Source: a virus (Duplodnaviria > Heunggongvirae > Uroviricota > Caudoviricetes). From it: a stretch of DNA of 10,237 nt. Of the stretch, positions 804 through 10,237 are shown in pieces. The stretch's first letter is position 1, and each line of letters begins with the position of its first letter. The notes under the pieces are model-generated. The model did no database searches and was not told the DNA's origin. It saw only the letters and a list, made by a program, of their open reading frames with translations. The position numbers and the translations under genes are program-made. The stretch spans positions 1 to 10,237 of the IMG/VR virus record IMGVR_UViG_2778261151_000009, one strand, 5' to 3'.

Positions 804-878
<75 letters not shown>

Positions 879-881
879 ATA

Positions 882-957
<76 letters not shown>

Positions 958-959
958 AC

Positions 960-1036
960 TGGACCGCCACCGGGGACTCGAACCTCGCACACTCAACTTA
1001 AAGGGTTGACGCTCTTTCCTGATGAGCTAGTGGCGG
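960..1036 (-). tRNA. tRNA-like gene, Lys-type anticodon UUU but atypical anticodon loop (C at position 33)
   Basis: Reverse complement CCGCCACTAGCTCATCAGGAAAGAGCGTCAACCCTTTAAGTTGAGTGTGCGAGGTTCGAGTCCCCGGTGGCGGTCCA. Perfect 7-bp acceptor stem, 4-bp D stem, 5-bp anticodon stem (TCAAC/GTTGA), loop CCTTTAA, T-loop TTCGAGT, encoded CCA. Isotype uncertain. Confidence 0.55.
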
Positions 1037-1040
1037 TTGG

Positions 1041-1113
1041 TGGCCCTTGCTGGATTTGAACCAGCGACCTGGCGATTATGAGTCGCTCGCTCTCACCACT
1101 GAGCTAAAGGGCC
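1041..1113 (-). tRNA. tRNA with CAU anticodon; resembles tRNA-Ile2 (lysidine type) more than elongator tRNA-Met
   Basis: Reverse complement GGCCCTTTAGCTCAGTGGTGAGAGCGAGCGACTCATAATCGCCAGGTCGCTGGTTCAAATCCAGCAAGGGCCACCA; anticodon loop CUCAUAA. From memory the body resembles E. coli ileX-type tRNA. Confidence 0.75.
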
Positions 1114-3844: not shown

Positions 3845-4000
3845 TTACTCCTCAGGTTCGTAAGCTGTGAAGACAGCGACCTCCGTCTGGCCGGTTCGGA
3901 TTCGTACCTCGCAGAGGTCTTTCCTCGTTACCAGTGCCGTCACTATGACGGTTAAACAGATGACGATAAGGGCGATTAACATCGCCTTTTGCTGCTTCAT
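3845..4000 (-). CDS. hok: Hok/Gef family type I toxin (51 aa)
   Basis: MKQQKAMLIALIVICLTVIVTALVTRKDLCEVRIRTGQTEVAVFTAYEPEE is a single TM helix plus the conserved Hok periplasmic tail. ORF track extends it in frame to an upstream ATG at 4057. Flanked by promoter, terminator and 5'/3' complementary elements. Confidence 0.9.
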   Translation of the reverse strand: MKQQKAMLIALIVICLTVIVTALVTRKDLCEVRIRTGQTEVAVFTAYEPEE

Positions 4001-4176
4001 AGCCTGCTTCTCCTTGCCTTTCGGCACGTAAGAGGCTAACCTACATGTGTTCAGCATGGATTGAGCCTCAGATTAATGTTAAGCGTCTTGCAGGACGCGT
4101 AATGTTAACTGGGGCTTTTCTCTATCTGCCTTTTGGTGTTCATGCCTGAGACAGATAGCCTCAAGCACCCGCAGTC

Positions 4177-5620: not shown

Positions 5621-5912
5621 TGGCTGTCTCCTGAAAAATCACCGCATGCCCCAGTTTCTCCGCCAGCGCCAGTTCTGCCTTAGCGCCTGCTGACCGCTGC
5701 CAGCCTTTCAGCATGTAAATCGCATCCACACAACGAATCATCGCCATGCAGATATCCATGTACTGCGGCTGTGTCAGCCCGTCCGGAAGTACTGCCGGGT
5801 TTAAGACGGTATGCCCTTCCCGTTTCAGTTCCTCTTCCGCATTGTGAAACGCCTCACGGTTGAAATTTTTATACCCGGTCATTGGACCGGCGATATAGAC
5901 TCTCACCCTCAC
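5607..5912 (-). CDS. DUF4406-like protein (nucleoside 2-deoxyribosyltransferase-like fold family), 101 aa
   Basis: N-terminus RVYIAGPMTGYKNFNREAFHNAEEELKREGHTVLNPA matches the characteristic YIAGPMTG...NF...F...G..V.NP signature. GTG start overlaps the upstream stop (GTGA); SD AGGAGG 7 nt upstream. Confidence 0.7.
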   Translation of the reverse strand: MRVRVYIAGPMTGYKNFNREAFHNAEEELKREGHTVLNPAVLPDGLTQPQYMDICMAMIRCVDAIYMLKGWQRSAGAKAELALAEKLGHAVIFQETASVQD

Positions 5913-6371: not shown

Positions 6372-7442
6372 TTACCCCCTGAAGCCCGGCGGAATTTCGT
6401 TATCCGGTTCAGAAATATGATTCACACAACGCTGGTTGTTCGTGCCGCTTACCGGGAGCAACCAGGGGTTCTCAAAATTCCGGTCCGGTCCAAAAAACGT
6501 CGTCGCTCGCTGAACAAATTCCGTTCCCGTTTTCCCGGTAGCCGCCAGGTATCTTGCGTAACGCCTCACGCCATCCAGCATGGCCTCTGGTGGCACCCCC
6601 TCGCGTAATCTGGCCTTCCAGGCACTGAAAGCGGATTTCTTCGGGTTTGCCCCGGCACGCAACGGGTACTCCCGCCAGACCTGTTCGAACACATCCGGAT
6701 AATCCACTCGTCCCACAGACTGCCCGGTGTTTTCCGGGACTACCCGATCGGCTTCCCGCTGAATGGCGGAATCGGCTTCAGGCTGCTGCAGTTGGTGTGA
6801 TTGCTCCGGACTTGCGGTCATCACCTGCTGCACAGCGCCCGAATCGGCTTTCAGCGCATACGCTGAATCGGCTTCCGGTGTCGTGCCTGCTGGCTGACCA
6901 GGATTGACGGTCTGAACATCCCCTGCCTGGTTCGTGGCGTTTTTTACGCCATGGACCATAGTGTTTTGATCTTCTTGATCTGTATCTTTATCTGTATCTT
7001 TATCTGTCGTGACTCGTCGTGACATGTGCGTGACATATCGTGACGCGCCGTGACAATCGCCATTTTGTTCCCGCTTTCTTTCCCTCTCTCGCTGCGCCCT
7101 CTTGCGCTCTGCAGGAGATTTTGCGGTTTGCGAAATATTGCCGTTGTCCTCTTTCAGCACCTGGCGTTTTTCCCATCCAGTGATTAAATCACCATCAAGT
7201 ACCCGCCCCTGCATCGTCTGCAAAATTGAATCAATTACCTCTTCTGTCACGTCGAGCGCACTTGCCAAATCTTCTGTCGTGACATCAATGTGACCTCGCG
7301 TGACATTTCGTGACGCGCTCACCAGGAGGTGGATATACACTGCCATCACTGTTGCAATTGGCTGCCCTGACACCCTGGCAATTGTTCGCCACTTAGGGTC
7401 ATTTGGCATGTCATGCCATAATCTGAGCCAGGCGTTAGCCAT
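6372..7442 (-). CDS. Putative replication initiator (O-like: N-terminal HTH, low-complexity linker, C-terminal domain) with iteron clusters inside the coding sequence
   Basis: ORF track 6372..7448 (GTG); ATG at 7442-7440 has SD AAGAGGTGA. Position after Cro-like and YdaT-like genes. Acidic repeat linker TTDKDTDKDTDQEDQ; basic stretch KRAQRERERKRE. Two clusters of CGTGAC direct repeats at helical-turn spacing inside the gene. Confidence 0.65.
   Translation of the reverse strand: MANAWLRLWHDMPNDPKWRTIARVSGQPIATVMAVYIHLLVSASRNVTRGHIDVTTEDLASALDVTEEVIDSILQTMQGRVLDGDLITGWEKRQVLKEDNGNISQTAKSPAERKRAQRERERKREQNGDCHGASRYVTHMSRRVTTDKDTDKDTDQEDQNTMVHGVKNATNQAGDVQTVNPGQPAGTTPEADSAYALKADSGAVQQVMTASPEQSHQLQQPEADSAIQREADRVVPENTGQSVGRVDYPDVFEQVWREYPLRAGANPKKSAFSAWKARLREGVPPEAMLDGVRRYARYLAATGKTGTEFVQRATTFFGPDRNFENPWLLPVSGTNNQRCVNHISEPDNEIPPGFRG
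7008..7054. repeat. Iteron-like cluster 1: five direct CGTGAC repeats at 10-11 bp spacing
   Basis: Copies start at 7008, 7018, 7029, 7039 and 7049, immediately preceded by a tandem 12-bp repeat ATCTGTATCTTT x2.5 (6978-7013). Confidence 0.6.
7246..7314. repeat. Iteron-like cluster 2: CGTGAC at 7278, 7299, 7309, variant TGTGAC at 7289, inverted copy GTCACG at 7246
   Basis: Same hexamer and 10-11 bp phasing as cluster 1, about 225 bp away, within the N-terminal coding part of the initiator gene. Confidence 0.55.
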
Positions 7443-7513
7443 ACTCACCTCTTTTGATACCGAATCTTTTTACTCACAAATTGCCGGAAGTGATCCGGTA
7501 TGAATATTGCGAG

Positions 7514-7939
7514 TCAATGCACAGCCACAATATTTCCTGCAGGGCCACCACGATTCATCTGGTTGAAACCAGCGATCGCCACTGCGACAAAATCATCAGC
7601 GTCTCTCACCAGTCGTTCCCGCGTCTCCACTAGTTCCCGAAAATAGGCTGAGCTATGGCTGCGCATTCGGGCCACCAGCAGAGGTGGCATTGCTTTTTCG
7701 ATAGCTGGTAACAACGCCTGAATTTTTTTAAGCGCATCAGGGGGGTCTTTCTCCACCCAGCGGAAAATTTTCTGAGTATTGCGAGCCAGGGCTTCCGGAT
7801 GGCTGTCGTCATACAGTTCCGGGAACGTCATTCCCAGCTCGAAATACGCTTTGGTAATTTTCGCAGCCGGTACTTTTTCGCCGTCCGGATGCGCCCAGGC
7901 ATTCATCGCCATGCGGATGTGTTCATGCTTGATTTTCAT
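7514..7939 (-). CDS. YdaT-like protein (position equivalent to CII in lambdoid early operons), 141 aa
   Basis: ORF track; ATG overlaps Cro-like stop as ATGA. Sits immediately downstream of the Cro-like gene. Family name from memory of Rac/CP-933P YdaT, not verified. Confidence 0.5.
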   Translation of the reverse strand: MKIKHEHIRMAMNAWAHPDGEKVPAAKITKAYFELGMTFPELYDDSHPEALARNTQKIFRWVEKDPPDALKKIQALLPAIEKAMPPLLVARMRSHSSAYFRELVETRERLVRDADDFVAVAIAGFNQMNRGGPAGNIVAVH

Positions 7940-8190
7940 GAATCAACTCCCATCAGCTTTTTCGTAGTAGTTTTATTCCTGCCAATAGTTAAAATTGCAT
8001 CGGCAGAAAATAATCCGTTTGATGCAAGAGCGATTTTTTCAGCGTAATTTGTTTCGCCGGTATATTCTGTGCGAGGCAATTTTCCGTTATCCATCCATTT
8101 ATAGATTGCTCTTTGGCTGACACCACAAACGTCGGCCACAACAGCAACGCGAACAGTTTTGATTACATCTTCAAGTGTTTTCTGGTTCAT
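7936..8190 (-). CDS. Cro-like HTH DNA-binding protein (84 aa from ATG 8190)
   Basis: ORF track 7936..8262, but the ATG at 8190-8188 has SD GAGGGTG 6 nt upstream. HTH signature VVADVCGVSQRAIYKWMDNGKLP. Divergent from the repressor gene. Confidence 0.7.
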   Translation of the reverse strand: MNQKTLEDVIKTVRVAVVADVCGVSQRAIYKWMDNGKLPRTEYTGETNYAEKIALASNGLFSADAILTIGRNKTTTKKLMGVDS

Positions 8191-8269
8191 ATCACCCTCA
8201 CAATGTGAACTTTGAGTACATGCTATAACAGAACTGACAGTACATTCAAGAGCGAATATCATTGAACTT
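8191..8269. promoter_or_regulatory. Divergent promoter/operator region between the Cro-like and repressor genes
   Basis: Repressor-side promoter: -35 CTGACA (8234-8239), 17-bp spacer, -10 TATCAT (8257-8262). Cro-side: -35 TTGAAT (plus 8244-8249), -10 TATAGC (plus 8222-8227). Two AACnnnnAGTACAT motifs at 8208-8221 and 8232-8245. Confidence 0.55.
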
Positions 8270-8689
8270 ATGGTTCATGAAGATAAAGCGCGTAAAGAGT
8301 TCGCCAGTAGGCTTGCGCTAGCCTGTGAAAACGCTGGTTATGAACAACATGGAAGGCAGGCAGAAATTGCCCGTCGAATGAAATTAACACCAAAAGCGGT
8401 TAGCAAATGGTTTAATGGCGAAACAATTCCTCGCCGGGAGAAATTAAGGGAATTAGCAACACTAATAGGAACAACACCAACCTATCTTTTGGGAGAGGAT
8501 ACAGAAGAAAGTGGACAGGTACGTTTCTATCAGGAGTTAAATCCAAGACAAAAAATCATCATTGACCTTCTGGACGAGCTCCCTGACAGTGAGACAGATG
8601 AACTTTTAAAAACTCTTGAAGAGAAAAAACAGAAGTACAATGCAATTTACGAAGAGTTAGCACGAAAGAAAAAACAAAAAGCCTCTTAA
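8270..8689 (+). CDS. CI/DicA-like XRE-family repressor lacking a peptidase domain (139 aa)
   Basis: ORF track; HTH GRQAEIARRMKLTPKAVSKWFNGETIP; C-terminal acidic/coiled segment. Divergent from Cro-like gene. No SD, with -10 placed about 7 nt before the ATG, suggesting a leaderless mRNA. Confidence 0.8.
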   Translation: MVHEDKARKEFASRLALACENAGYEQHGRQAEIARRMKLTPKAVSKWFNGETIPRREKLRELATLIGTTPTYLLGEDTEESGQVRFYQELNPRQKIIIDLLDELPDSETDELLKTLEEKKQKYNAIYEELARKKKQKAS

Positions 8690-8759
8690 ACCAGCATAAA
8701 TCCGGTAGCGCCTTCCTCCGGGTTTGTGCTTCACTTTATCCCATCTCATTTTTTTACAC

Positions 8760-8810
8760 ACAAAATGTACTATAAGTACTTTACAACAATGAACGCAAAG
8801 TACATTATAT
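8760..8810 (+). promoter_or_regulatory. Operator/promoter region upstream of the ydfA-like operon
   Basis: Near-palindrome ATGTACT-ATA-AGTACTT (8764-8780) and AACgcaaAGTACAT (8791-8804) overlap a candidate promoter (-35 TTTACA 8779-8784, -10 CATTAT about 8802-8807). Confidence 0.45.
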
Positions 8811-8986
8811 ACCTGCCACCCACCCCGCCCCACAGAATGCAGGGCAATACTTCGAGTTACCAGGCAGTGGTCAGGGGTTAAGTAGCCAGCCCGAGGCGTA
8901 AGAACATGACGGCAGGGTTCAACTTTAATAACTATGCAGCAGGTTTTTGTTCCGCTACCCCGGCGTTAAGGGGAAATGAGGTCAGC

Positions 8987-9142
8987 ATGGATACTATCGA
9001 TCTTGGCAACAACGAATCTCTGGTGTACGGCGTGTTTCCCAACCAGGACGGCACCTTCACCGCAATGACGTATACCAAAAGCAAAACGTTTAAAACCGAA
9101 TCTGGAGCGCGTCGCTGGCTGGAAAGAAATTCAGGTGGGTGA
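8987..9142 (+). CDS. ydfA: YdfA-like small protein (51 aa)
   Basis: Internal ATG of ORF track 8906..9142 with SD GAGGT 4 nt upstream. Protein MDTIDLGNNESLVYGVFPNQDGTFTAMTYTKSKTFKTESGARRWLERNSGG. Size and position after the DicA-like repressor match Qin ydfA (from memory). Confidence 0.6.
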   Translation: MDTIDLGNNESLVYGVFPNQDGTFTAMTYTKSKTFKTESGARRWLERNSGG

Positions 9143-9143
9143 T

Positions 9144-9272
9144 ATGGATTTCGACACAATCATGGAAAAGGCTTACGAAGAATACTTCGAAGGCCTTGCC
9201 GAAGGCGAAGAAGCTCTCAGCTTCAGCGAATTTAAACAGGCGCTTTCCAGTTCGGCAAAATCTAACGGCTGA
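9144..9272 (+). CDS. ydfB: YdfB-like small protein (42 aa)
   Basis: Not in ORF track (too short). ATG 9144 with SD AGGTGGG; own translation MDFDTIMEKAYEEYFEGLAEGEEALSFSEFKQALSSSAKSNG. Start 1 nt after the ydfA-like stop. Confidence 0.6.
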   Translation: MDFDTIMEKAYEEYFEGLAEGEEALSFSEFKQALSSSAKSNG

Positions 9273-9300
9273 TAAGCGAAACAGCACGCGAGGAATCAGT

Positions 9301-9411
9301 ATGCAGAAACGAGAACCCGTCATCATCGCGCCAGACTATACCGATGATGAACTTTATGAGTGGATTTTGGCGGCATCAGTTTCATTGCTGGCTGATGTCC
9401 GCCCTTTTTAA
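9301..9411 (+). CDS. YdfC-like short ORF (36 aa), uncertain; its 3' end is the DicF-like hairpin
   Basis: ATG 9301 with SD GAGGAA; own translation MQKREPVIIAPDYTDDELYEWILAASVSLLADVRPF. The coding sequence runs through the terminator hairpin, so it may be truncated or partly non-coding. Confidence 0.35.
   Translation: MQKREPVIIAPDYTDDELYEWILAASVSLLADVRPF
9357..9409 (+). ncRNA. dicF: DicF-like sRNA (processed 3' end of the ydfABC transcript) with intrinsic terminator
   Basis: GGCGGCATCAG...CTGATGTCCGCC hairpin (9369-9403) followed by TTTTT. Sequence and position after ydfC resemble E. coli DicF (from memory); 5' end not determinable here. Confidence 0.55.
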
Positions 9412-9591
9412 AGTGAATTTTGTGATGCGGTGAATGCGGCTCAGCGCACGCGGAACAGTTAAAACAGTAAGGAAAATCCCTTATTCCGGCGTTAATTATT
9501 AACTGGTTAACGTCACCTGGAGGCACCAGGCACCGCATCAACAAAGTTCACTTCGGTGATGAAAGGTAAGAGAAAATGTTGAATGTAGCTA

Positions 9592-9703
9592 TTGAAAACC
9601 AGAACGGGTGGAATTATAGTGCACCTGCACCTCATAAAACGGGTGCCGGGCGTGGAAACCCGAAATCATTCACGGCGCATAACCGCGCTCAGGCGGTTTT
9701 TTT
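9592..9703 (+). promoter_or_regulatory. Promoter-terminator unit: -35 TTGAAA (9592-9597), 17 bp, -10 TATAGT (9615-9620); terminator hairpin ACCGC-gctcag-GCGGT plus T7 (9682-9703)
   Basis: Near-consensus sigma70 elements followed about 60-75 nt later by a stem-loop and seven T. Could be a small RNA or an attenuating leader for the Rha-family gene. Confidence 0.4.
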
Positions 9704-9872
9704 ATGCGTTAAGCACAGCCACATTCGCATTATGGTGGGGCGTGCAGGGCAACCGCAAGGCTGGCCGGGTTCCGTGATGACCGGTATTTCCACCCCTGTA
9801 CGTCTCACCACCCTTATGGTCGTGGAAAACCTCGGTGGTGAGTTAATCAAATTCATCGCGGAGGCTGCCATC

Positions 9873-10237
9873 ATGGCTACTATCCTTACCCTTTCTCACC
9901 CTGACGTAACCATCGAAAATGGTCGCGCTGTCACTACGTCTGTTGCGATCGCCGAGTTCTTTGGCAAACGCCACGAACGAGTGTTGGATAAAATTCGCAA
10001 TCTGGACTGTTCAGCAAAATTCACTGAGCACAATTTTGTGTCGAGCGAATACACCGACTCAACCGGGCGCAAACTCCCAATGTACCAAATCACCAAAAAC
10101 GGCTTCGTTTTCCTGGTGATGGGCTTCACGGGCAAAAAAGCCGCCGCATTCAAAGAGGCATACATTGCTGAGTTCGACCGCATGGAGGCCGAACTGCGCC
10201 AGAATAACACCCCACCTGCTGACAAGATGATTCCGGG
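9873..10237 (+). CDS. rha: Rha-family phage regulatory protein, N-terminal part; gene continues beyond window end
   Basis: Absent from ORF track (no stop in window). ATG 9873 with SD GGAGG 8 nt upstream. Own translation MATILTLSHPDVTIENGRAVTTSVAIAEFFGKRHERVLDKIRNLDCSAKFTEHNFVSSEYTDSTGRKLPMYQITKNGFVFLVMGFTGKKAAAFKEAYIAEFDRMEAELRQ matches the pRha domain signature. Confidence 0.75.
   Translation, partial: MATILTLSHPDVTIENGRAVTTSVAIAEFFGKRHERVLDKIRNLDCSAKFTEHNFVSSEYTDSTGRKLPMYQITKNGFVFLVMGFTGKKAAAFKEAYIAEFDRMEAELRQNNTPPADKMIP

Follow-up and report, generated by a model that had tools for sequence, protein, structure and literature searches.

HK022-type operator dyads at the two promoter regions of a probable lambdoid prophage immunity switch

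The immunity region described here is very probably a lambdoid (pro)phage switch that carries HK022-type operators for a repressor and a Cro-like protein. It lies in a 10.2-kb stretch of viral DNA (10,237 nucleotides), analyzed at full length and referred to as the window. The repeat unit of the switch is a 17-bp dyad, ATGWAC-N5-GTWCAT (core TGWAC-N5-GTWCA), of which three copies (8205, 8229 and 8262) are found between the divergent cro-like and repressor genes and two (8765 and 8789) over the promoter of the ydfA operon. These sites are not randomly distributed, they are identical in design to annotated HK022 operators and promoters, they are conserved, and they are co-inherited with both regulators. 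The features of the region are as follows, with operator matches given out of 12 scored positions.

7946 to 8817: immunity cassette, 872 bp, comprising the cro-like gene, O_R1-3, the repressor gene, O_L2-1 and P_L
7936 to 8190, minus strand: Cro-like protein, 84 aa, start ATG 8190, Shine-Dalgarno GAGGG
8205 to 8221: O_R1-like operator, GTGAAC-TTTGA-GTACAT, 11/12, over the -10/+1 region of the leftward cro promoter
8221 to 8249, minus strand: P_R-like promoter of the cro-like, ydaT and replication genes, -35 TTGAAT (8249-8244), -10 TATAGC/ATAGCA (8227-8221)
8229 to 8245: O_R2-like operator, CAGAAC-TGACA-GTACAT, 10/12, between -35 and -10 of the cro promoter
8234 to 8262, plus strand: P_M-like promoter of the repressor gene, CTGACA-17-TATCAT, 10/12 in the promoter scan
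8262 to 8278: O_R3-like operator, TTGAAC-TTATG-GTTCAT, 11/12, spanning the repressor ATG (8270) and codons 2-3
8270 to 8689, plus strand: repressor, 139 aa, N-terminal HTH_3 (HK022/933W CI-like), C-terminal ~55 aa DicA-like
8765 to 8781: O_L2-like operator, ATGTAC-TATAA-GTACTT, 11/12, right arm overlapping the -35 TTTACA of the ydfA-operon promoter
8780 to 8808, plus strand: P_L-like promoter of the ydfA operon, TTTACA-17-CATTAT, from the promoter scan and conserved in the family alignment
8789 to 8805: O_L1-like operator, ATGAAC-GCAAA-GTACAT, 12/12, between -35 and -10
8987 to 9272, plus strand: ydfA (8987-9142) and ydfB (9147-9272), first genes of the P_L/O_L operon, Pfam DUF1391, from the RefSeq annotation of identical DNA

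The initial annotation had described a heptamer, AGTACAT, preceded by AAC, together with an inverted pair, ATGTACT-ATA-AGTACTT. The heptamers at 8215-8221 and 8239-8245 stand exactly where they had been placed; the third is also present, at 8799-8805 instead of 8798, and the inverted pair occupies 8765-8781, not 8764-8780. The AAC had likewise been seen, although the repeat unit was misdescribed: AAC belongs to one arm and AGTACAT to the other of a single dyad, (A)TGWAC-N5-GTWCA(T), with AGTACAT as its right half, and the inverted pair is no separate element, being the most symmetric copy of the same 17-bp dyad. Four operators had been noted; the fifth, at 8262-8278 over the repressor ATG, had been missed.

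Across the whole window AGTACAT matches five times against 0.71 expected, a count reached in none of 200 shuffles; besides the three copies above, it occurs on the reverse strand at 8765-8771 and at 5758. Allowing at most one mismatch, AACNNNNAGTACAT gives 4 matches (0.55 expected) at four places only, the AGTACAT copies at 8215, 8239, 8799 and 8765, and GWACN5GTACAT gives 7 strand-hits (0.75 expected), all within the five dyads. When dyads were scored over 12 positions, with 10/12 or better defining a good copy, exactly five were found in the 10.2-kb window, all in the two regulatory gaps and zero elsewhere. Their spacings are 24 and 33 bp in OR and 24 bp in OL, and the OR dyads lie at -65, -41 and -8 relative to the repressor ATG, in the gap of about 80 bp that separates the repressor (ATG 8270) and cro (ATG 8190) starts. 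A repeat of this kind might be due to chance or to AT-rich promoter composition (-10-like TACATT/CATTAT), with no protein binding to it, and several bases do serve promoter elements: the last three bases of O_L1, CAT, begin the -10 CATTAT, and GTACTT-TACA overlaps a -35, while a further AGTACAT is found in coding sequence at 5758. That copy, however, is unrelated and without a dyad partner, the regulatory sites are dyads with fixed 5-bp spacers, the shuffles never attained the observed counts, and arms outside the promoter hexamers are conserved across bacterial orders where spacers and flanks vary. Chance or composition is effectively refuted as the source of the repeat and retains almost no probability.

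The sites had been proposed to sit over the divergent cro/repressor promoters and the ydfA-operon promoter, and comparison with the operators and promoters annotated in HK75 (HM173637) and HK022 (AF069308; Carlson & Little 1993) bears this out. The P_R-like promoter falls base-for-base on the annotated HK75 pR (L128 2445-2474, offset 5775) and the P_L-like promoter exactly on HK75 pL (L128 3277-3305, offset 5503). The counterpart of the O_R2-like operator is HK022 oR2, cGGAACTGATAGTACAg, also at -41; the O_R3-like operator shares its full 15-bp core with HK022 oR3, tTGAACTTATGGTTCAa (-8), the sole difference being the outermost flanking base; and the O_L2-like and O_L1-like operators correspond to HK022 oL2, aTGTACTAtTGGTACTt, and oL1, aTGAACTTTAaGTACAt, the latter 24 bp from oL2. 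The spacer of the O_R2-like operator, CTGACA, provides the -35 of the repressor promoter, whose start is predicted at or next to ATG 8270, so that the repressor mRNA would be leaderless, with no Shine-Dalgarno sequence. No accessory operator resembling oL3 (53 bp from oL2) or OFR (~300 bp beyond OR) was found, there being no site of at least 9/12 in 6903-8205 or 8690-8764.

The initial annotation would have been refuted had related prophages lacked the motif at the corresponding positions, and they do not lack it: motif and geometry recur in about 35 distant loci of Enterobacterales, Vibrionaceae, Pasteurellaceae and Pseudomonas, including Salmonella, Klebsiella, Enterobacter, Pantoea, Providencia, Vibrio, Photobacterium, Haemophilus, Pseudomonas and others. 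In the OR family alignment of 33 loci, the mean information is 1.34 bits in half-sites vs 0.60 bits at other positions. Within this alignment the O_R1-like half-sites are conserved, the O_R2 spacer CTGAxA is unusually conserved, the ATAAT-like -10 and TTGnnT -35 of P_R are retained, and TAT..T is kept directly 5' of O_R3 in the 33 loci. O_R3 has the greatest information content of all, part of which may reflect the protein, since its right arm is also coding (Met-Val-His). Insertion of higBA or of an ATPase gene behind the repressor gene does not displace the OL pair, which still stands ahead of the following operon. In 52 haplotypes that share this immunity, only 1 of the 15 common polymorphisms in 8757-8817 is in a half-site, at its outermost base; OL-region spacers are highly variable, and O_L2 in particular combines a polymorphic spacer with conserved arms. 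Depletion of polymorphism in the OR half-sites is weak (2 of 11 variable positions vs ~4.5 expected). The conservation signal comes from OL and the family-wide alignments, not from OR polymorphism alone.

A single regulator, probably the 8270-8689 repressor, had been suggested for both regions, and all the computational comparisons agree with this suggestion: the match of the sites to HK022/HK75, their conservation in distant loci, the homology to HK022 CI and Cro, and the co-inheritance of the cassette. The DNA-binding domain of the repressor is 47% identical to HK022 CI (aa 4-102), and its aa 1-73 are 51% identical to 933W CI. Its recognition helix, TPKAVSKWFNGE, differs from TPKAISKWFNGE of HK022 CI at one residue (V/I). 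Lys46 is conserved in the alignment with HK022 and 933W CI; for 933W, Bullwinkle et al. (PMC3317979) proposed from a model-built complex that this residue contacts the guanine in the C-G pair at position 5, and they tested the complex with a K46A mutant and with substituted operators. No solved structure of a close repressor homologue was identified, the only match being a marginal one to the P22 C2 N-terminal domain (E 0.006). The C-terminal part is of another kind: against DicA the repressor shows 29% identity over 112 aa (E 5e-15), in an alignment of aa 30-137 that takes in the motif region LPxSE...L of the C-terminus; its last 55 aa find their match in DicA, whereas the S24 homologues P0021/P0034 do not align there. 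Pfam assigns HTH families only, and the repressor has no S24 (LexA-like) self-cleavage domain. This DicA/Gifsy-like C-terminus is the only unusual feature of the immunity region. Salmonella homologues that are 62-65% identical adjoin the same operators, and one of them, P0015, has an upstream in-frame AUG; its assignment as Gifsy-3 GfhR is a lead, the cluster names giving no gene name.

Over 73 aa the Cro-like protein and HK022 Cro are 60% identical (E 1e-33), and identity to Cro-like proteins of Salmonella and Raoultella loci is 56-58%; the protein is presumed to be the second ligand of the same five operators. A relationship to DicC was considered and rejected, no similarity being present. 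The operators might instead be used only by the Cro-like protein or by another phage or host factor, with the 139-aa HTH protein recognizing something else; because the sites are inherited together with both regulators, comparison alone does not tell which of the two binds them, and the repressor C-terminus is unusual. Against this, CI proteins with a homologous HTH have been shown to bind such sites in HK022 and 933W (PMC8053113, PMC3317979); repressors with either type of C-terminus adjoin the same operators; LexA-box-like sites do not exceed chance; and cII-type direct repeats are not the pattern seen at the sites. We consider exclusive use by a factor other than the repressor very improbable.

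From these data we infer how the switch would operate, from binding itself to occupancy order, cooperativity and route of induction. Repressor dimers would bind the five 17-bp dyads, and dimers of the Cro-like protein would bind the same dyads in the lytic state. In a lysogen, repressor on O_R1 and O_R2 would occlude the leftward cro/ydaT/replication promoter, and repressor on O_L2 and O_L1 would occlude the rightward ydfA-ydfB-... promoter. O_R3, placed over the predicted start of the repressor's own transcript, would allow its shut-off by Cro or by excess repressor. Since O_R2 is a weak dyad (10/12), its occupancy may differ, and since it covers the -35 of the presumed repressor promoter, its centre being near -33, positive autoregulation is not to be assumed. 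In HK022, the C-terminal domain of CI mediates strong cooperativity, and the corresponding domain of the window repressor differs. With a DicA/Gifsy-like C-terminus in place of S24, induction is predicted to require an antirepressor or another RecA-independent route. The only antirepressor candidate found is a Rha-family gene, an ORF from 9870 onward in the P_L operon, with isrK and C4-type RNAs ahead of it. The window showed no antirepressor gene under LexA control, and the idea that LexA governs the region or this candidate was rejected: CTGT-N8-ACAG with at most one mismatch yields 4 matches vs 3.4 expected, none relevant. A put- or nut-like structured RNA in the conserved leader 8815-8990 was also rejected, as its fold is no better than that of shuffles (z = +1.16), and this leader has no Rfam match.

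The boundaries of the cassette emerge from the phages 689R5 and 640R1, which carry other immunities and are 96-99% identical to the window up to 7944/7945 and from 8818/8821, and unrelated between. Promoter and operators are, judging from these alignments, exchanged together with the repressor and cro genes as one cassette. Alternative cassettes in the same backbone, including that of Qin, each have their own motif common to their OR-like and OL-like regions. Downstream, the ydfA-ydfB DNA of the window is 97% identical to that of Qin, and the full ydfABC-dicF-dicB set stands behind the same cassette in Escherichia phage Tritos and in E. coli PCN061; in the window, rearrangement of the operon sets in beyond codon 21 of ydfC, a truncated gene here joined to a 3' remnant of dicF. 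This rearrangement, along with rare singleton half-site mutations in some genomes, would suit a decayed prophage remnant in which the operators are real, the switch no longer operates and the sites are kept by recent descent only. Yet both regulator ORFs are intact, the same cassette is present at 98.5% identity in the Tritos phage record and also in other phage records, and it is carried by 360 of 5426 complete E. coli genomes, the repressor protein being found on >1000 contigs. Decay is in our judgment unlikely.

The operator design of HK022 and 933W was worked out long ago, and the present finding is right yet ordinary, adding a new allele to a textbook mechanism and leaving the understanding of phage switches unchanged. 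It does provide a precise operator map for a common, uncharacterised immunity cassette, one that gates the dicF/dicB cell-division inhibitors in related prophages. It also indicates that the HK022 design extends far beyond two model phages and occurs across Enterobacterales, Vibrionaceae, Pasteurellaceae and Pseudomonas, and that recombination has joined the DNA-binding module to two different C-terminal modules, which determine induction. The TGWAC-N5-GTWCA specificity appears common to a very broad repressor family, whose members end either in an S24 domain open to SOS cleavage, as in HK022, or in a DicA/Gifsy-like domain that is not cleaved. With a recognition helix that departs from the HK022 CI one by a single conservative residue, and operators that could almost be exchanged, the window repressor might cross-repress HK022-type phages, a speculative idea that we regard as having a minor chance of being right. 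If true, a common E. coli prophage would give SOS-insensitive immunity against, or silence, co-resident or incoming phages with a cleavable repressor, and crosstalk in immunity would have come about through a domain swap.

Among known systems, HK022 and 933W are the closest precedents for the DNA-binding part of the switch and Qin DicA-dicBp for its target operon. In HK022/HK75, oR1-oR3 and oL2-oL1 match the window sites in sequence, spacing and position from the repressor ATG, pR and pL are placed as in the window, and the OL/PL DNA of HK022 is 82% identical over 61 bp, the region upstream of OL being unrelated. The HK022 repressor has 235 aa with an S24/LexA-like domain, in contrast to the 139-aa window repressor, which has none; oL3 and OFR are present in HK022 and absent from the window; HK022 P_L drives putL-nun, whereas that of the window drives ydfA-ydfB...; and HK022 cII is replaced by a YdaT-family protein. 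HK022 CI binds adjacent OR and OL operators cooperatively and loops OL to OR (PMC8053113, citing Carlson & Little 1993). The 933W repressor has five natural 15-bp rotationally symmetric sites with G-(A/T)-A-C at positions 2-5 (PMC3317979), arranged as three OR and two OL sites, as in the window. Its half-sites read CGTAC/TGAAC, its helix (SSKGVSKWFNAE) differs from that of the window repressor, it carries an S24 domain that the window repressor does not have, and it was reported not to bind adjacent sites cooperatively (PMC3317979).

Qin dicA-dicC-dicBp resembles the window in its short repressor of 135-139 aa, non-cleavable and homologous at the C-terminus, its divergent cro-like gene, its motif common to both regulatory regions, and a repressed promoter just downstream of the repressor gene that drives ydfA-ydfB-ydfC-dicF-dicB (Bejar et al. 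1988; PMC3441716; PMC10448788). The operator specificity is another one: the experimentally supported DicA Oc of Qin (PMC3441716) is TTGTTAGTCATAACTAACAA, a sequence not found in the window, the shared Qin motif TGTTAGTCAT is equally absent from the window, Qin promoter/operator DNA is non-homologous, and DicC is unrelated to the window Cro-like protein. The Gifsy-type short repressors, which are inactivated by antirepressors, are of the same size class as the window repressor and likewise have no cleavage motif. This group includes DicA and RacR according to Lemire, Figueroa-Bossi & Bossi 2011 (PMC3121763), and the window repressor falls within it; the upstream AUG of P0015 resembles the GfhR/GfhR* arrangement (PMC3121763).

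The likeness to lambda oR/oL that had been drawn at the outset is thus one of logic. Lambda operators have no sequence relationship to those of the window, lambda has three OL sites and the window two, lambda O_R2 lies next to the maintenance-promoter -35 (centred at -42) whereas that of the window lies on it (about -33), and the window repressor, unlike that of lambda, is without a RecA-cleavable domain. Both place three sites between divergent cI and cro genes and use shared sites at the leftward early promoter as well; in both, OR1 and OR2 are 24 bp apart and the cI message has no leader, a prediction in the case of the window.

Five dyads in the window, which is the early/regulatory region of a lambdoid E. 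coli (pro)phage, are very probably the operators of its repressor/Cro pair. They are listed here with the genes around them.

Features of the window (dyads with start position and score)
Minus strand: P21-type holin gene
804-1113, minus strand: tight cluster of four tRNA genes (Gly-TCC, Thr-TGT, Lys-TTT, Met-CAT), flanked by the Q antiterminator and holin genes
Minus strand: antiterminator Q, RusA, DUF968, hok/sok, Ead/Ea22 and DUF977 genes
Minus strand: replisome organiser gene
7514-7939, minus strand: YdaT-family gene
7936-8190, minus strand: Cro-like HTH gene, 84 aa
8205: dyad GTGAAC-TTTGA-GTACAT, 11/12 (O_R1)
8229: dyad CAGAAC-TGACA-GTACAT, 10/12 (O_R2)
8262: dyad TTGAAC-TTATG-GTTCAT, 11/12, contains the repressor ATG (O_R3)
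8270-8689, plus strand: HTH_3 repressor gene, 139 aa
8765: dyad ATGTAC-TATAA-GTACTT, 11/12 (O_L2)
8789: dyad ATGAAC-GCAAA-GTACAT, 12/12 (O_L1)
3' of the repressor gene, plus strand: ydfA then ydfB

In Stx phages, the position corresponding to the tRNA cluster is occupied by tRNAs and toxin genes. The late-early region of the prophage contains a toxin gene of the hok family (hokD/relF-like; listed at 3845-4057, minus strand) with a full-length match to the sok antitoxin RNA (118.9 bits), the hok/sok locus spanning 3845-4170 on the minus strand. Escherichia phage Tritos, with two regulators named CI and Cro by its depositors, matches positions 7900-9300 at 98.5% identity; of 5426 complete E. coli genomes, 360 contain this stretch at a coverage of at least 80%.

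The initial annotation had proposed the heptamer AGTACAT, preceded by AAC, as an operator-like motif under one regulator. It occurs on the plus strand at 8215 and 8239, as described, and at 8799 rather than 8798, on the minus strand at 8765, and as an unrelated copy at 5758; these five occurrences compare with 0.71 expected, a count reached in 0 of 200 shuffles. Matches to AACNNNNAGTACAT with at most one mismatch were confined to four regulatory places. The preceding AAC is also present, but the heptamer is not the unit: when both strands are read, AAC and AGTACAT prove to be opposite arms of one dyad, (A)TGWAC-N5-GTWCA(T). A search of the entire window, set against the regulatory gaps, with a 12-position dyad score and a cut-off of at least 10/12, returned exactly five sites, every one inside the two gaps; their starts are 24 and 33 bp apart among the first three sites and 24 bp apart for the other two. 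The proposed operator set at both regions is retained, although it was incomplete, since the 8262 site had been overlooked, and the supposed inverted pair exists at 8765-8781, not as a separate element but as the most symmetric copy of the common dyad.

A consensus promoter scan placed the repressor promoter P_M at 8234-8262 (CTGACA-17-TATCAT) and the ydfA-operon promoter P_L at 8780-8808 (TTTACA-17-CATTAT), both on the plus strand. On the minus strand, the leftward promoter P_R was read as TTGAAT (8249-8244) and TATAGC/ATAGCA (8227-8221); it precedes the cro-like gene, whose Shine-Dalgarno sequence is GAGGG. With elements at these coordinates, O_R1 and O_R2 cover the +1/-10 and spacer/-35 of the cro promoter, O_L2 and O_L1 cover the -35 and spacer/-10 of the ydfA-operon promoter, and O_R3 covers the repressor transcript start, in agreement with the earlier placement of the motif over -35/-10 elements at both regions. 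Because no Shine-Dalgarno sequence precedes the repressor ATG at 8270 and the -10 ends only 8 nt upstream of it, we infer that the repressor message is leaderless, as is the lambda cI message from P_RM. The O_R3-like segment 8262-8278 includes this ATG and codons 2-3 (Met-Val-His/Gln), with equivalents in comparison loci L006-L044; from E. coli to Vibrio, this operator continues to overlap both the transcription start and the start codon, and in Pasteurellaceae loci the distance between the O_R3 equivalent and the aligned start is about 19 bp greater.

Comparison with phage records by tblastn gave 47.5% identity between the repressor N-terminal domain and HK022 CI (aa 4-102) and 50.7% with 933W CI (aa 1-73), and the Cro-like protein shares 60% identity with HK022 Cro. 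The HK75 record is annotated 'similar to HK022 oR1, oR2, oR3, oL1-3, OFR, pR, pL'.

Operators of HK022/HK75
oR1: gTGAACTTATGGTTCAt
oR2: cGGAACTGATAGTACAg
oR3: tTGAACTTATGGTTCAa
oL2: aTGTACTAtTGGTACTt
oL1: aTGAACTTTAaGTACAt

Relative to the cI ATG, the three oR operators are placed at -65, -41 and -8, and the OL pair is 24 bp apart, which is exactly the geometry of the window, and the annotated HK75 pR and pL (offsets fixed by oR3 and oL1) map to 8220-8249 and 8780-8808, where the promoters had been located independently. Judged by sequence, the window dyads are HK022-type operators. The recognition-helix region reads TPKAVSKWFNGE in the window, TPKAISKWFNGE in HK022 and SSKGVSKWFNAE in 933W, and Lys46 is conserved in the window repressor. 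For 933W, a model-built complex, tested by its authors with substituted operators and a K46A mutant, suggested that Lys46 contacts the guanine of the position-5 C-G pair (PMC3317979). The five natural 15-bp symmetric sites of 933W have conserved G, A (T preferred), A and C at positions 2-5 (PMC3317979), corresponding to the GWAC core of the window dyads. HK022 differs in having oL3 and OFR, which lack counterparts in the window, and putL-nun under P_L, where the window has a Qin-type operon (ydfA, ydfB...).

Variation among close relatives largely avoids the half-sites. The few substitutions of Tritos and vB_EcoS-666R9 lie in N5 spacers or between sites. Among 52 distinct haplotypes from 82 same-immunity loci, 15 positions in 8757-8817 were polymorphic (variant in at least four haplotypes), the only one within a half-site being 8789, the outermost and least specific base, and the most variable stretch being the spacers 8771-8775 and 8795-8796. 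By our binomial estimate this half-site depletion has P ~0.006 (half-sites making up 39% of positions); in OR alone the depletion is weak.

Repressor homologues occur in enterobacterial hosts (Salmonella, Raoultella, Klebsiella, Kluyvera, Enterobacter, Brenneria, Pantoea, Providencia) and in Vibrio, Photobacterium, Haemophilus, Gallibacterium, Pseudomonas and Salinicola. Conservation at equivalent positions in related prophages, raised earlier as a check, extends to these distant loci, which keep the dyads at -65/-41/-8 (-84/-27 in Pasteurellaceae) and a pair 24-25 bp apart ahead of the next rightward operon. When 33 distinct OR regions were aligned without gaps, half-sites carried 1.34 bits of information on average, compared with 1.09 bits for spacers and 0.60 bits for the remaining positions; the figure for spacers is inflated by the O_R2 spacer CTGAxA, which also serves as the -35 of the repressor promoter. 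The OL consensus was aaaaTGtACTtt.ggT.CTTtAc...aaTGAACt.t..GTACAT.aT. The OL pair stays directly ahead of the early-left operon even beyond a higB-higA insert in Salmonella and a 480-aa AAA ATPase gene in Raoultella. Such cargo between repressor gene and OL operators (L006 3553-4220 and L007 3588-4255, Salmonella; L009 3808-5250, Raoultella) occupies the position of rexAB in lambda; it is the higB-higA toxin-antitoxin pair in Salmonella prophages, and in Raoultella/Klebsiella prophages an AAA_15/AAA_21 ATPase that is possibly a defence gene. Some Salmonella homologues, P0015 among them (L007 3001-3456, 151 aa, against 138 aa for P0012 of L006), have an annotated start at an in-frame AUG that lies 15 codons before the conserved MVHEDK start, an arrangement resembling that of Gifsy-3 GfhR/GfhR* (PMC3121763). 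A 1026-bp record titled Streptomyces sp. (NZ_JBEOWA010000103.1, L021) combines the start of an HK022-like repressor with operators that hardly differ from the E. coli/Kluyvera ones, and most likely represents enterobacterial contamination of a Streptomyces assembly.

Phages 689R5 and 640R1, with other immunities, match the window at 96-99% identity up to 7944/7945 and resume that identity at 8818/8821, with unrelated DNA in the interval; the ydfA-operon promoter and operators therefore belong to an immunity cassette of 872 bp whose end coincides with the predicted transcription start. No window-type dyad was found in the regulatory gaps of loci with other immunities. Each alternative cassette has its own 9-10 bp word, common to the cro/repressor gap (OR-like) and the promoter region downstream of the repressor (OL-like) on the same prophage backbone.

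Words shared by the two regulatory regions
689R5: TTTTAGATT, L004 1149-1247 and 1893-2010
640R1: ATGTTTTGAT, L002 1767-1896 and 2497-2640
Qin: TGTTAGTCAT, L005 1352-1434 and 1843-2008

These words are operator predictions for the three cassettes; that of Qin is part of the DicA operator Oc, for which there is in vivo binding evidence (PMC3441716).

The last ~55 residues of the repressor do not align with HK022 CI, align with Qin DicA (29% identity over 112 aa, E 5e-15) and contain no S24 domain in Pfam, so the protein joins a DNA-binding module of HK022 type to a tail of DicA/Gifsy type. The same operators adjoin repressors that have an S24 peptidase domain (P0021, P0034, HK022) and repressors with a short DicA-like tail (window, P0012, P0015), and operator type is, across these loci, apparently independent of the C-terminal domain. 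Cross-immunity between cleavable and non-cleavable repressors with common operator specificity seems unlikely. DicA is inactivated by the antirepressor Rem (PMC10448788) and Gifsy repressors by GfoA/GfhA/GftA (PMC3121763), with no cleavage on SOS induction, and we predict by inference that the window repressor is induced through an antirepressor of this class. The only candidate antirepressor locus seen for this repressor without a cleavage domain is the isrK/C4/Rha locus.

Further along the early-left operon lie an isrK-family sRNA (9627-9703, plus, 67.7 bits), a C4 antisense RNA of P1 immI type (9728-9815, plus, 76.3 bits) and a Rha-family regulatory protein gene (Phage_pRha, E 2e-31; 9870-10237, plus, continuing past the window end), an arrangement resembling the P1 c4-icd-ant and Gifsy-1 isrK-anrP modules. 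In the region 9301-9465, ydfC is intact only to 9365, its ORF stopping at 9411 (36 aa), and from 9366 there is ~90% identity to Qin starting at the 13th base of dicF; a deletion therefore joined ydfC to the 3' part of dicF. Rfam gave no DicF match in the window, and dicB is absent from it, whereas Tritos and E. coli PCN061, of the same immunity, have the full ydfC-dicF-dicB.

Repressor dimers on O_R1/O_R2 and O_L2/O_L1 would block RNA polymerase at P_R and P_L, O_R3 would serve for shut-off of the repressor promoter by Cro or excess repressor, and Cro would use the same sites once repression is lifted. O_R2 falls on the -35 hexamer, its centre ~33 bp before the point where the repressor mRNA is predicted to begin, and repressor there may either activate or repress its own promoter, a caveat also made for HK022 (PMC8053113). 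The same paper, citing Carlson & Little 1993, reports cooperative binding of HK022 CI to adjacent operators in OR and OL, and OL-to-OR looping. The 24-bp pairs and the OR-OL distance of ~580 bp are compatible with both, uncertainly so because the repressor C-terminus differs from that of HK022. Occupancy order, sign of autoregulation, leaderless start and antirepressor are details held with less confidence than the operator assignment.

In the literature searched there was no description of the chimeric repressor allele, nor of how broad the operator family is. From HK022 and 933W the family was already known, together with its geometry and logic, and a short repressor controlling a dicB-type operon from a promoter just downstream is already known from Qin.
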